64,000 bases of DNA from a virus (taxonomy: Duplodnaviria > Caudoviricetes). The notes beneath the pieces were generated by a model. That model made no database searches, had not been told where the DNA came from, and worked only from the letters and a program-made list of their open reading frames with translations. Below, piece by piece: positions 15,246 through 20,676 of the stretch. The position numbers and the translations under genes were made by a program. The stretch lies in the IMG/VR virus record IMGVR_UViG_3300022661_000051. The stretch is one strand, 5' to 3'. The stretch's first letter is position 1; the number at the start of each line of letters is the position of its first letter.

Positions 15246-16040
15246 ATGCCATTCAATTTCAGAGCATTCCTCGAAGGCGACGATGAGGAAGAAAAGAAAA
15301 AGAAGTCTGATGAGGACGAAGACGAAGATGACGACCTCGATGACGATGATGATAAAGACGACGATGACGATGATTCTACAGATAATGATTATTTAGGCGG
15401 AGCTGACGATGATGATGAATCTGGGAGTAATGATGACGATGATTCAGACTCTGGTTCTACTGATAATGATTATCTTGGTGGCGACGATAGTGTCGGAGGT
15501 ATTGAAGGTGATAATGACGATATTTCCGCAGGCGATTCTGATACTGGCGATACTGGCGCTTTTGATAAGCTCGCTAAGGTAGTATACGCAACAATCGTTG
15601 GAATCAATAACTTCCGTCATATTCATTTCCATTGTTCAGGTCCTCATTTTAAGGACATTCATTCTCTTACCGACGGCATTTATTCACAGTTCGTTTGGTA
15701 TATCGATGGACTCGCAGAACTCACTCTTCAGGGTAAGGGTATGAAGCTCGACAACTTCTGTAATTCTCATCAGTACGTTGCTGAAATCGATATCGAGACT
15801 GAAAGTGATTACAATTTTGAGGCGGCATGTACAGCATGTGCTAATACACTCAAGCATCTCTTGAATATCTATAAAGATGCAAGAGATGCGTTTACTGATA
15901 GACCTGATATTCAGAGTAGTCTTGATGAGAAGATAAGTCTTATTAATAAGAATCTTAACTACAGCATTGAAAGAAGACTGGCCGGATCTGGCGGATCAGT
16001 AGAAGAATCATGTAACTTTTTCAACTTTGACGTAAAATAA
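15246..16040 (+). CDS. Dps/ferritin-like protein with long acidic N-terminal region
   Basis: HIHFHCSGPHFKDIH...IDGLAE matches the Dps H-x11-H...D-x3-E ferroxidase pattern; ~100-aa D/E-rich N-terminus; promoter 15207-15218. Confidence 0.75.
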   Translation: MPFNFRAFLEGDDEEEKKKKSDEDEDEDDDLDDDDDKDDDDDDSTDNDYLGGADDDDESGSNDDDDSDSGSTDNDYLGGDDSVGGIEGDNDDISAGDSDTGDTGAFDKLAKVVYATIVGINNFRHIHFHCSGPHFKDIHSLTDGIYSQFVWYIDGLAELTLQGKGMKLDNFCNSHQYVAEIDIETESDYNFEAACTACANTLKHLLNIYKDARDAFTDRPDIQSSLDEKISLINKNLNYSIERRLAGSGGSVEESCNFFNFDVK

Positions 16041-16041
16041 A

Positions 16042-16453
16042 AGAAAGGACCCCGCAGGAATATCCTGCGGGGTTGGTTACATTCACATTGATGAAAAAAT
16101 AAATACTTTCATTTGATAGCTTTTCCGTGATAGAAATTTAGAATTATGTACAAAGTACCGATAAATAGTAGGTAGCGTAAGATTTATACGCTTTCCCTCA
16201 TTCAGTTGTTTGATTTCTCATTATGGCCGTTAATGAGAAAATCTGAAATGGTGTAAGTTGGATTTTGATTTGAGCAATCTTATTTGTTTGTAGTGTTGTT
16301 ATATAACAATCAGTAATAGATTTATAAAGCTGGAAAGCATGTAATGTCCTCTTATGTATAAAGAACTGAAAGCAAATGGATTGATGAGTTCTTTACTTTA
16401 TTTCGGTCTTAGACCCGTGACTCGTATCTTAACAGTCGATTTATAAACCTATT
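16042..16453 (-). ncRNA. Putative ~410-nt structured non-coding RNA
   Basis: Late promoter AACA-TATAAG-TA (16453-16464). The 5' end pairs with 16315-16328 using a G-U wobble only on the minus strand. Several internal hairpins, terminator at the end, no ORF >60 aa. Confidence 0.55.
16049..16073. terminator. Bidirectional terminator hairpin
   Basis: ACCCCGCAGGA-ata-TCCTGCGGGGT between the dps-like gene and the convergent ncRNA. Confidence 0.75.
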
Positions 16454-16479
16454 ACTTATATGTTACCGTATGTTATTTT

Positions 16480-17197: not shown

Positions 17198-17293
17198 CTT
17201 AAAACCTCCTAAATAGATGTAATTAGGATCGATTTTACTATAATGTTACTCATGTAGTAATTTATAATTACCCAGTTGTACCGTTTAAGATAA

Positions 17294-17305
17294 AACATTA
17301 TATTA
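17294..17305 (+). promoter_or_regulatory. Putative late promoter AACA-TTATAT-TA
   Basis: Exact AR9-like late consensus upstream of the prohead protease. Confidence 0.65.
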
Positions 17306-17333
17306 ATTAATTAAAATATAAGGGGGCTTTTAT

Positions 17334-18209
17334 ATGTCATCAAATACATGTATCGGCTATGTATTACATGAAGCCGTTACCGAAACAGAAGCTACTATTC
17401 TTGATACAAAAAATGGCAAGCCTTACGCTACCGGAATTCTTCAGGATCTTGGAGTCGAAAATAGAAACGGAAGAATATATGAAACTTCGGAAATGAAACC
17501 TGAAGTTGAAGGAGACCGTATTCAGAAAGAGCTTATTCCTTATGGATATATGAGAGGTCATGCCGGACATCCGTCAACCTCAGATCTTTCTATTCAGTCT
17601 ACTATCGATCCTAAACTCTGCTGTGTTCAGTTTGATAAAATATGGATGGATGGTAACCTTATCAGAGCAAACTACCATGGAACTAATAATGAATACGGTA
17701 GAGCATTCTCAGAAGATCTTCTCGAGGGTTGCTTCCCAGCATTTAGTTTAAGAGCACTAGGTTCTGTGGACCGTTCTAGAAACGGAAAGTGCTATGTAAG
17801 AAATCTTCGTATTATTACATGGGATCATGTAATTTATCCTTCACATAAGAGAGCATATACAGAAAAGCTTATCGATGCTAAGGATGCTAGAGGTACAATC
17901 AAAGAATCAGCTATCATCCTTCCAAACGATCCAAGAGCTAAATTCCATAAGGCTTGTATGATTGAAGAAGCAACAGCTTCGGACGGTAATGTAATTCCTA
18001 TAATGAATCAGCAGGTTGTAGATTACGTTAAGAGTGAATCTGCAAATATCAAGTCTATTATAAACACATTTGATACTCTTTACGAATCAGCTATTCTTGT
18101 AAATAACGGCAAGGCTGTATCCCTCAAGATTAAAGGTGGAGATACAATTATAGTAAATCTTGAATCTTATATTCAGGACGAAATTATGAACTGGTGTTAT
18201 AATAACTAA
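17334..18209 (+). CDS. Prohead core protease (T4 gp21/S77-like)
   Basis: ENRNGRIY, GHAGHP, FSLRALGS, ITWDHVIYPS; C-terminal tail with several xxES/A self-cleavage sites. Confidence 0.9.
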   Translation: MSSNTCIGYVLHEAVTETEATILDTKNGKPYATGILQDLGVENRNGRIYETSEMKPEVEGDRIQKELIPYGYMRGHAGHPSTSDLSIQSTIDPKLCCVQFDKIWMDGNLIRANYHGTNNEYGRAFSEDLLEGCFPAFSLRALGSVDRSRNGKCYVRNLRIITWDHVIYPSHKRAYTEKLIDAKDARGTIKESAIILPNDPRAKFHKACMIEEATASDGNVIPIMNQQVVDYVKSESANIKSIINTFDTLYESAILVNNGKAVSLKIKGGDTIIVNLESYIQDEIMNWCYNN

Positions 18210-18217
18210 AAATAAAG

Positions 18218-18241
18218 GTAGGGTGCGTAATCGCACCCTAC
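18218..18241. terminator. Bidirectional terminator between convergent genes
   Basis: GTAGGGTGCG-taat-CGCACCCTAC. Confidence 0.7.
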
Positions 18242-19062
18242 TCTCTTTCCACTTTAACAAATGCTGGTACATAATTCGGTATCTGAGGAATTGTTTGTAC
18301 AGATTCTATATTATCTGGATGCGATACTCCTATAACAGTATTTCCAGATATGTCGTTTTTATATTCAGCCAATCTTTCTTTAAGCATTTTCTGAAGATCA
18401 TGTAACTGATCTATTTGAGAATTATCTCCCATTTCGACACTTATATATTTCTTTTCGAGTACTTGTTTATAATTATCATTCATAGACCCTTCTATTGTAA
18501 GGCGTTCAAGCTCATCCAATTTGTCGAGAAGCTCCGGATCTATGTAATTGTAGTACATAGCAATGAATTGACGATAATAACCGTATACTTTATCAACCGG
18601 TACAAAAATATACTGGTTGTGGACAAGTTCATGTACTGTCTCACATAATGGAATAAGACCGAGCATTAAGCTATAATGTATGTACATTACTTCATAAGCT
18701 ACAGCTTCAATATCAAGACATTCGCCCAAGCTCATTCTTTTATTAAGAATGATTACACATATATCATATAAAGTTATAGGTGAATGATGAATTTCTATCT
18801 TTACCTTAAATGAATTTTCATTGTTGATATTGGGCATGAATGCACATGACCTCATATTCATATACTCTCTTAGATATGCGATCATATTTCGATACTCGAA
18901 AGAACACCTTACAAACCTTTCAAGATCTTTTATATATTTAGCTCTATCCTTTTCATCGAAAAGATCATAGTCCTGAATTTCGTACGCAGGAATGTCGTTA
19001 GGAATTCTGATAATATCTATCTCGTTCGGTTGAAGAGGTATCATACTATTTTCACCGATCAT
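18238..19062 (-). CDS. HNH-like nuclease-fold protein (paralog of 54475-55197)
   Basis: CAF...IEIHH...GLIPLCETVHELVH; C-terminal PAFVK; late promoter 19092-19103. Confidence 0.55.
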   Translation of the reverse strand: MIGENSMIPLQPNEIDIIRIPNDIPAYEIQDYDLFDEKDRAKYIKDLERFVRCSFEYRNMIAYLREYMNMRSCAFMPNINNENSFKVKIEIHHSPITLYDICVIILNKRMSLGECLDIEAVAYEVMYIHYSLMLGLIPLCETVHELVHNQYIFVPVDKVYGYYRQFIAMYYNYIDPELLDKLDELERLTIEGSMNDNYKQVLEKKYISVEMGDNSQIDQLHDLQKMLKERLAEYKNDISGNTVIGVSHPDNIESVQTIPQIPNYVPAFVKVERE

Positions 19063-19109
19063 AATCTATGTTCCTCCTTATAATAATAAATTATTATAAA
19101 GTTCTTGAC

Positions 19110-19410
19110 AAAAAATAAACGCGGCAGTATCGAGGTGGTGCCCGAAAGCACCACCTAAATACTCATTCATTTAAAAACTGCAGGAGTGTATTTAAAACGA
19201 GATTTCAATAGAATAAATGATTGATGTAGATGGAACCAGCACTATTGGACGGTTTGTGGGTGCGGCTCAAAAATTAAGGCAGACGAGATATTATTTCGCC
19301 GGCAGATAAAACGGCAAAACGGCCAGTCCTGATATCATCTCATCAGCGGCATCGCCGATACTGTAAAGAAAAGAGCGGCTCTCGGCGCCAATTCCATCAT
19401 GTCAATCATT
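19110..19410 (-). ncRNA. Putative ~300-nt structured ncRNA with eight GCCG motifs
   Basis: Late promoter AACA-TTATAG-TA with +1 at 19410; nt 1-26 pair with 19216-19242 via multiple G-U pairs; UUCG-capped 3' hairpin 19126-19163; GC-rich and no ORF. Confidence 0.65.
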
Positions 19411-19475
19411 ACTATAATGTTATATATGTGTTAAAAAATAAATGGGAAGATATCCCATTTATTTTATTATATCGA

Positions 19476-20345
19476 TCATTTACGAATGATCTGCTTAGCT
19501 GCTTCATAAGCTGATTCCATAGTAGTACAATTACAAAGGAATCCAGAGTTATGACAGAAAGTCATAGATCCAGGAAGTTCAGATTGGGGTTTACCACACC
19601 ATTCCTTTGGGAATTGATAATCTGATTCCATTGTGTTAATTGCTTTCGGAAGAACCTGAGCAGCAAAGCCGCCTCTGAGGTGAGGATATATTACAACCTT
19701 CACTGTAGGAAGTTTTGTAAGACAATATCTAATGAAATCGGCATACTTATCGAGAAACAGAACAGTACCATTTTCATTAACTCTTCCATTCGCATCGATA
19801 TAGCTCCAGGCTGCATTTCTATTATCCAGCTCCGCAAACTTTCTTTTAATGATCTTTTCTGCAATATCTACAGCTTCACTGAAACGTCTGTTCTCAAGAA
19901 TATCTCGAGCCGAGCTGTCCGGTATAATATAATTTGCGCTGTAATGTTCGACTTCTTCGATCGTTGGGTTGAATAATCGTATCATGTCATTGATAGCACA
20001 CTTCTCTCCACCGTTATCATGGTTATCAATTGGCTGAACGAATTCTTCATCAAAAGTAGGATATTTCTCCCAATCTCCAAACTCTCTCCAGAGAAGTCCA
20101 AATGCGGCATACTTTATACCGTTAGGACGAACTTCTGCATCTTTCTGATGATGATCGAACTTACCAAGTCCAATATCATAAATGATAGTGTCAGGACTAT
20201 TAAGAATTTCCTCATCAACTTCGTTGAGCTTTATTGTTCTTATGATAGAGATATCGTGTTCCTTAAAAAGTATTTTAAGAAGCGCAGTTGAGAAAACCTC
20301 ATCTGCATGGAACTGAGTGCTATGTGTTATTAAAATTTTGGACAT
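19476..20345 (-). CDS. MYG1 (UPF0160) family exonuclease
   Basis: THSTQFHADE, DIG..FDHHQ, YAAFGLLW, IDNHDNG, FCHNSGF. Confidence 0.9.
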   Translation of the reverse strand: MSKILITHSTQFHADEVFSTALLKILFKEHDISIIRTIKLNEVDEEILNSPDTIIYDIGLGKFDHHQKDAEVRPNGIKYAAFGLLWREFGDWEKYPTFDEEFVQPIDNHDNGGEKCAINDMIRLFNPTIEEVEHYSANYIIPDSSARDILENRRFSEAVDIAEKIIKRKFAELDNRNAAWSYIDANGRVNENGTVLFLDKYADFIRYCLTKLPTVKVVIYPHLRGGFAAQVLPKAINTMESDYQFPKEWCGKPQSELPGSMTFCHNSGFLCNCTTMESAYEAAKQIIRK

Positions 20346-20349
20346 GATA

Positions 20350-20676
20350 TTAACCCTCCTGAATGTCGATCTTTGTTATTACGCAGTTCTTCGCTGCAGT
20401 AAGAATTTCATTAGAGATTTTGTTTTTGTCCTTATCGCTGATACTATCGATAACTTTAACGATTGTAGCGTTATGAATATTAACGAGTTCGTTTATTACG
20501 GTAATATTAGTATCATTGATATTTTTGTATACGACTTTCGGTAAACCGTCCGGCATTGAGAAAGACTGCAATCCTCGATGCATTATGTATTTTTCCTCAT
20601 TCGTTTTATTGTCTTTGACTTTGTAAAGTATACCTGCATCGAATGCATAAATACTTATAAGAGTTATACCTTCCAT
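20350..20676 (-). CDS. Hypothetical protein
   Basis: Start refined to ATG 20676 after GAGGAGG. Confidence 0.7.
   Translation of the reverse strand: MEGITLISIYAFDAGILYKVKDNKTNEEKYIMHRGLQSFSMPDGLPKVVYKNINDTNITVINELVNIHNATIVKVIDSISDKDKNKISNEILTAAKNCVITKIDIQEG

Follow-up and report, generated by a model that had tools for sequence, protein, structure and literature searches.

The element lies on the minus strand of the window, the whole 64,000-nt stretch of viral DNA that was analysed, which in turn corresponds, on the minus strand, to positions 26309-90308 of a complete virus record of 230,692 bp (G000:C1). The record carries direct terminal repeats and has a GC content of 35%. The best named relatives of the proteins encoded in the window are those of AR9/PBS1-type Bacillus phages, the Yersinia phage phiR1-37 and Staphylococcus jumbo phages, and the proteins next to the element have homologs in the same phages. 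Near-identical DNA is present in many animal faecal and gut metagenomes; among the public runs listed, no RNA run carries the phage. The element lies in a 413-nt gap between an upstream gene of the MYG1 family and a downstream gene for a 274-aa protein. Read along the minus strand, the locus comprises the following features:

19476..20345, minus strand: upstream gene, 289-aa MYG1/UPF0160-family protein (Pfam PF03690, E=1e-32)
19435..19465, minus strand: terminator hairpin of the MYG1-family gene, a 13-bp perfect inverted repeat followed by a T-run at 19438-19433
19410..19421, minus strand: late-type promoter AACATTATAGTA that fits the AR9 consensus, predicted +1 at 19410
19385..19410, minus strand: 5' arm of the closing helix, 26 nt, the first 8 nt of which (AAUGAUUG) are the ancestral tRNA leader
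19275..19384, minus strand: variable GC-rich core bearing most of the GCCG motifs (pi 0.059; gaps in 39 of 120 alignment columns)
19243..19274, minus strand: conserved C/A-rich segment (…GAGCCGCACCCACAAACCGUCCAAUA), pi 0.009, mostly unpaired in minimum-free-energy folds
19216..19242, minus strand: 3' arm of the closing helix, the 14-bp segment of which is paired at 140 of 140 cells over 10 variants
19164..19215, minus strand: conserved AU-rich linker (pi 0.005), which holds ACACUCCUG
19189-19181, minus strand: the C-rich motif ACACUCCUG itself, anti-Shine-Dalgarno (anti-SD)-like, within the linker
19126..19163, minus strand: strong 3' hairpin AGUAU-UUA-GGUGGUGC [UUUCGG] GCACCACC-UCG-AUACU, with one loop polymorphism (G/A)
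19110..19119, minus strand: U-tract UUUAUUUUUU, homologous to the T-run of the ancestral terminator in relatives
19092..19103, minus strand: proximal promoter-like motif AACTTTATAATA of the 274-aa gene
18238..19062, minus strand: downstream gene, 274-aa protein (phrog_12252), a homolog of AR9 g242

Sequence searches of the 274-aa protein against Pfam and the PDB gave no significant match. The protein contains the string EIHH…PLCETVHELVH, which by eye recalls a putative HNH/ββα-metal motif.

The promoter motif AACATTATAGTA agrees with the AR9 late-promoter consensus A(-11)ACA-N6-T-A/G(+1) (PMC7598289), the promoter of the non-virion RNA polymerase (nvRNAP) in AR9 and related uracil-DNA jumbo phages (PMC7598289, PMC9209446). 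This fit places the +1 on 19410, the first base of the closing helix, as the preliminary description of this DNA had proposed. The same 12-mer recurs ahead of other genes in the genome, and the late-promoter motif is threefold enriched in intergenic DNA, mostly 15-100 nt ahead of gene starts. The element thus carries, on its transcribed strand, the same promoter motif with the same +1 position as the late units of AR9. The AR9 late promoters have been described upstream of protein genes, whereas a 300-nt product devoid of an ORF is not described there. In the present genome there are several other late-promoter units that lack an ORF, in keeping with the earlier suggestion.

To follow the element within its species we assembled 10-11 distinct variants from genomes that are 97-99% identical, using the 90% cluster of the 274-aa protein. 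The 4-fold degenerate sites of three flanking genes served as the reference for diversity (pi 0.07-0.086, 55 of 293 sites segregating). Against these sites the promoter is invariant across all strain variants (pi 0; p=0.012). The element is non-coding: its indels are not multiples of three, and its small ORFs (a 24-aa leaderless ORF and 30-aa ORFs), like all reading frames, are broken or frameshifted in variants.

No match to Rfam 15 was obtained for the whole window at gathering scores. At E<=10, the region 18900-19700 returned only weak, terminator-like chance matches of at most 20 bits, where the gathering scores are 43-100. The families covered include tRNA, tmRNA, 6S, Y RNA/YrlA, T-box, group I intron, hammerhead and ROOL/GOLLD, and ARAGORN finds neither tRNA nor tmRNA in the window. 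The novelty claimed for the element is therefore upheld at the level of Rfam, tRNA and tmRNA matches. Homologs of the element were also absent from blastn searches of 50,697 phage records and of four related viral records, and conserved 19-28-mers, run as exact patterns against viral, metagenome and GTDB genome collections, revealed none outside the phage species. Scanning with a combined promoter and leader pattern gave 94 loci, all attributable to chance and with nothing similar downstream. With no homolog found beyond this phage species, the comparison of structure below is confined to its strains.

Several specific identities were considered and rejected. A 14-nt match in relatives falls inside a coding region and is a chance match, and the hammerhead-like string CUGAUGAG is merely one arm of a small hairpin. 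A bacterial or phage Y RNA (YrlA) finds no TROVE (Ro) or RtcB gene in the phage and no Rfam match, although the host may have a Ro protein. A retron msr/msd or the template of a diversity-generating retroelement is unsupported, as there is no reverse transcriptase and RVT_1 is unmatched in the genome.

The setting of the element becomes apparent when it is compared with related contigs that encode homologs of the 274-aa protein at 63-74% amino acid identity (L015, L014, L017, L018 and L002/L003). In every relative found, a tRNA-Gln(UUG) gene adjoins the homolog of the 274-aa gene, sometimes with tRNA-Pro or tRNA-Lys as well. Three of them (L015, L014 and L018) have the tRNA after the terminator of the MYG1-family gene or of a neighbouring gene, behind a promoter and leader homologous to window positions 19442-19403. 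The promoter of the element is thus homologous to the tRNA-Gln promoter of these three relatives. The leader runs …TAACAATATAATAATGATTG|GGG-tRNA in the relatives and …TAACATTATAGTAATGATTG|ACATG… in this phage. Upstream of the promoter, the MYG1 terminator hairpin is homologous to the region after the MYG1-family gene of L015. On the other side, the last 59 nt before the ATG of the 274-aa gene (19121-19065) are homologous to the sequence that precedes this gene in L014 and L015, and this stretch includes a terminator T-run whose 5' half is missing here. With homologous blocks on both sides, the ~280 nt between the leader and the T-run are lineage-specific and occupy the tRNA slot at a rearrangement junction.

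A MYG1-family gene lies directly ahead of the tRNA promoter in several relatives (L014, L015 and L017). The gene, whose product is 3'-5' exoribonuclease-like, is retained in this tRNA-less phage in a shorter form, with 289 aa compared with 320-359 aa in the relatives. Neither ARAGORN nor the Rfam tRNA model RF00005 detects a tRNA gene anywhere in the 231-kb genome, whereas the related 214-kb phages G002 and G003 have six and five tRNAs, respectively (RF00005). Descent of the element from the lost tRNA or its trailer was rejected, as its alignment to seven tRNAs of relatives and to their trailers is no better than that of shuffled sequences.

The order of genes across window positions 17334-20345 differs from that of all relatives (L014, L015 and L017). 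The 274-aa gene is inverted relative to the MYG1-family and prohead protease genes: here it is co-directional with the former and convergent with the latter, while in the relatives it is convergent with the MYG1-family gene. A 533-aa gene present in L015 is missing from this genome and tblastn finds no trace of it, so that descent of the element from a relic of that gene was rejected.

These observations can be read as the signature of a scar. On this account tRNA-Gln was lost when the 274-aa gene inverted, the gap was filled with foreign or scrambled GC-rich sequence, and the old promoter would now produce a functionless RNA, with selection acting solely on the promoter, on a terminator or insulator, and on the upstream control region of the 274-aa gene. 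The position of the element exactly between two blocks homologous to relatives (the MYG1 terminator, promoter and leader on one side, the half terminator and gene promoter on the other), the unusual gene order with the 533-aa gene gone, and the lack of homologs elsewhere all favour this account. The persistence of 50% GC in a 35% GC genome is harder to reconcile with it, and the evidence from structure and conservation bears on it further below.

The first 26 nt of the predicted RNA form one arm of the closing helix, which consists of 9 bp, an internal loop and 14 bp (19410-19385 with 19242-19216). A long stem with four G-U pairs had been reported for this region. The stem and the four G-U pairs of the window sequence are real, and five pair positions are G-U on the transcribed strand. 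Pairing of the first 28 nt with downstream sequence has a duplex energy of -29.9 kcal/mol, which is better than for all 1500 random genomic starts (minimum -27.8 kcal/mol), and the whole unit folds with z = -4.0. Diversity in the 5' arm is near neutral (pi 0.073), yet every change preserves its pair. The changes are exchanges of G-U with G-C, G-U with A-U and C-G with U-G, all of them one-sided and wobble-compatible on this strand. RNAalifold detects no two-sided compensatory covariation among the strain variants (covariation term ~0), so the covariation that the preliminary description had named as a check is absent at this level. The helix is maintained, although one-sided changes of this kind do not prove selection at the RNA level. 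For the scar account the lack of covariation is a point in favour, but a statistically exceptional closing helix of 23 bp that is still paired despite neutral-level change in its 5' arm speaks against it.

The four G-U pairs had also been taken as evidence for the transcribed strand, as they would be mismatches on the other. This argument is weak on energetic grounds because both strands fold equally well: the 195-nt domain reaches -62.0 kcal/mol on one and -61.4 kcal/mol on the other, where the same energy is obtained through other pairs. The equal folding is compatible with a DNA-level element, in which an imperfect 27-bp inverted repeat around 142 bp would act as a site of protein binding, recombination or replication independently of transcription. 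Its location at a rearrangement junction and the presence of a GC island with repeated CGGC would fit such a site. We nevertheless consider it very improbable. The arm begins exactly at the promoter +1, the five G-U positions become C·A mismatches in the fold of the other strand, the element is single-copy, and the core has the same orientation in all 11 variants. It also lies away from the GC-skew extreme and from the genome ends, for which reason a replication origin or terminus was rejected.

A contiguous 9-bp clamp occurs at ~10% of random positions. A general rule by which promoters of this phage start clamped RNAs was therefore rejected, and at this chance rate only the present element and a unit at 16.4 kb stand out. 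The latter is an ORF-less unit behind AACATATAAGTA at window positions 16039-16464 (minus strand). Contiguous pairing joins the first 14 nt of this unit, AAUAGGUUUAUAAA, to UUUAUAAAUCUAUU ~125 nt downstream, and this 14-bp clamp is the longest +1-anchored helix among 335 promoter-motif sites. In L003 the two flanking genes lie next to each other, and relative to that contig the unit appears to be inserted. The pre-tRNAs of relatives have no clamp beyond the acceptor stem.

The helix encloses 142 nt (19384-19243) with 50% GC, in line with the GC-rich domain of ~140 nt described earlier. The eight GCCG motifs that had been counted in the element are likewise found, as CGGC on the plus strand at 19122, 19263, 19300, 19312, 19320, 19347, 19376 and 19383. 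Eight copies in 301 nt is the maximum for the window, where 300 nt contain 0.34 copies on average. When the element is shuffled with its dinucleotides preserved, the mean is 1.35 copies and none of 2000 shuffles reaches eight; when the 256 possible 4-mers are allowed for, the excess is only moderately significant. The RNA strand is asymmetric, with eight GCCG and two CGGC.

On the strength of the repeated motif the element had been proposed to be a multivalent sponge or decoy that titrates a protein, a toxin RNase or an sRNA through its approximately eight copies of GCCG. The excess over shuffles, the strand asymmetry and the persistence of several copies in all strains agree with this proposal. 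The core that bears the motifs, however, evolves at a neutral rate, with 14 of 81 sites segregating (p=0.87 against the 4-fold sites). Alignment gaps of 1-16 nt affect about one third of its columns, and some strains carry specific tandem duplications, of TCTTT (5 nt) and of GCCGTTTT (8 nt, confirmed by TRF). One of the GCCG copies of the window strain arises from the 8-nt duplication, so that indels add and remove motifs. In the variants counted, copy number ranges from six to eight: the commonest variant type has six and one strain has eight at partly different positions, and the set of eight seen here is particular to the window strain. Two of the eight copies are strain-specific and five or six persist across strains, which differ by only 2-3%; single copies read GCUG, ACCG or GCCC in some strains.

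The motifs are also mostly paired. In partition-function folds of three variants, the mean unpaired probability lies at 0.00-0.50 for most copies and at 0.61-0.74 for two others, and the 3'-tail copy alone stays unpaired throughout (0.99). The exposed motifs of a CsrB/RsmZ-type sponge are therefore not seen. Regular spacing and a tandem unit are likewise absent, and a ToxI-type antitoxin RNA was rejected, as TRF finds the 8-nt duplication (two copies) and no array of ~36-nt units, and no toxin gene is adjacent. Among the neighbours, the MYG1-family and phrog_12252 proteins, none is toxin-like or RNA-binding, and PADLOC gives no convincing match. With a neutral core, a variable number of mostly paired motifs and no ToxI-like units, a GCCG sponge is the least probable of the readings considered here. 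The motifs are best explained as building blocks of short G+C helices and not as displayed binding sites, and their over-representation as a result of how these helices are built, together with small duplications. We regard the GCCG-rich core as neutral filler that is free to drift, and its neutrality and many indels are equally what the scar account would lead one to expect.

Metagenome contigs of several runs stop at the MYG1 terminator hairpin (window 19453), and in one run contigs stop within the variable core (19286-19340). These ends suggest within-sample heterogeneity or assembly trouble at repeats. A second hotspot of indels between strains lies at window 20404-20563, in and upstream of the small genes beside a YD-repeat-like 92-aa ORF.

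In contrast to the core, the 3' module is strongly conserved. Across 19100-19274 (175 nt), 5 of 172 sites segregate (p=1.2e-7 against the 4-fold sites; pi ~0.005), and these 172 nt are conserved like codon positions 1 and 2. Constraint, and presumably function, resides in the promoter, in the base pairs that close the helix and in this 3' stretch of 175 nt. Within the module, the anti-SD segment and the hairpin of the preliminary description are both in place, although what was given as a UUCG cap is a 6-nt loop that reads UUUCGG here and UUUCGA in some other strains. The U-tract begins 6 nt past the extended stem and 14 nt past the core stem. A strict scan for intrinsic terminators calls none at the element because of this 6-nt distance from the extended hairpin.

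RNAduplex comparisons of the element with 288 translation-initiation regions gave antisense targets no better than those of shuffled RNA, and the number of perfect 9-10-nt complements is about that expected by chance. Other intergenic DNA of the phage is highly conserved as well (pi 0 over 136 nt at 17198-17333), so that the 3' module might owe its conservation to regulation of the 274-aa gene at the DNA level. For a scar, however, 172 conserved nucleotides far exceed what a terminator and a promoter need. Weighing the neutral core and the junction against this module and the closing helix, we judge the scar account unlikely, although it is the strongest of the alternatives.

The 274-aa gene has a promoter-like motif of its own. 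The sequence AACTTTATAWTA has six copies in the genome, each 25-35 nt ahead of a Shine-Dalgarno (SD) sequence and ATG, and one of them lies at 19103-19092; this class resembles the late consensus except for a T at -8. Upstream of the homologs in L014 and L015 the motif is conserved and directly follows the terminator. Given this proximal promoter, the element is either a separate unit that ends at the hairpin and U-tract or a late read-through leader. As a leader, transcription continuing from 19410 would give the gene a second, late mRNA on which the clamp would stabilise the 5' end and CUCCU would modulate the ribosome-binding site. In AR9 some genes carry both early and late promoters (PMC7598289), and g242, the AR9 homolog of this gene, has an AACA-N6-TA motif just upstream. 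The absence of a called canonical terminator and the +1 on the first base of the helix are also compatible with a leader. Against this, the anti-SD segment can form just 5 bp with the SD, the gene is separated from the element by the U-tract and the conserved proximal promoter, and the gene in relatives does well with a leader of ~30 nt. We consider a cis-acting leader distinctly unlikely, ranking it below the scar and above the DNA-level repeat, which is in turn followed by the GCCG sponge.

The explanation that we favour, and hold tentatively, is that the element, a non-coding unit transcribed late, has taken the place of tRNA-Gln in its transcription slot. The AR9-type non-virion RNA polymerase of the phage would start at 19410, and the first 26 nt would pair with 19242-19216, so that the 5' end is clamped in a helix of 9 and 14 bp around the drifting GC-rich filler. 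The constrained 175 nt would follow, with the C/A-rich unpaired segment, the AU-rich linker containing CACUCCUG, and the strong hairpin and U-tract. We infer that the transcript either ends at the U-tract as an RNA of ~300 nt or continues into the 274-aa gene, for which it would form a long leader. Our best guess for the clamp is that it stabilises or processes the RNA, as a protected helical 5' end or as a site of the RNase III type. Again as a best guess, G-rich (SD-like) RNA may be bound through base pairing by the conserved C-rich segments that are single-stranded, acting either in trans or on the mRNA produced by read-through.

This explanation gains from another tRNA slot of relatives that is likewise occupied in this phage, outside the window at G000:C1:92510-92890 and syntenic to the tRNA-Pro of G003 (L128:2461-2537). 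It holds no tRNA and has a late-type promoter, AACAATATATTG, with the +1 at 92531, a hairpin that starts at +1 and then a GC-rich 22-bp hairpin. It is conceivable, but in our view improbable, that tRNA slots of these gut AR9-like jumbo phages are exchangeable cassettes for small RNAs clamped 5' to 3', with at least two slots refilled by new late RNAs after all tRNAs were discarded and with the core evolving by diversification instead of neutrally, for example as a decoy that tracks a variable RNA-targeting defence or RNA-binding factor of the host.

If the favoured unit is transcribed and functional, it represents a datable case of a phage that swapped a tRNA gene for a structured RNA unrelated to it while keeping the late promoter, and the lineage concerned has lost every tRNA. 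It would also support the existence of ORF-less late RNAs in AR9-like jumbo phages, which are undescribed for the group. The analysis points to the clamp and the 3' module, rather than to the GCCG core, as the parts to mutate. As the element is a species-restricted orphan and a candidate RNA, its general impact is modest.

Among known systems, CsrB/RsmZ sponges carry conserved binding motifs in loops, and ToxI is a regular tandem array beside a toxin gene. The element resembles both in that a short motif is repeated several times in one non-coding RNA. It differs from them in that its motifs are mostly paired and irregularly spaced, within a neutral core and without a partner gene nearby. Bacillota have 5'-terminal stem-loops that act as stabilisers and C-rich base-pairing sRNAs such as RoxS/RsaE. 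The likeness lies in the helix at the very 5' end and in conserved, unpaired C-rich segments with a hairpin and U-tail behind them, and there is no sequence relation. The closest described parallel is in phage T4, where a pair of small RNAs of unknown role is made from the tRNA region (PMC3014915). Like these RNAs, RNAC and RNAD, the element is a phage-encoded, structured non-tRNA RNA candidate at a tRNA location; by synteny it sits where relatives have tRNA-Gln, following the same promoter and leader, and the likeness is one of location. The two phages differ in host group and in promoter type, which is AR9-like nvRNAP here. T4 keeps its tRNAs alongside the small RNAs, whereas this phage has lost all of its tRNAs and the element stands in the place of one.
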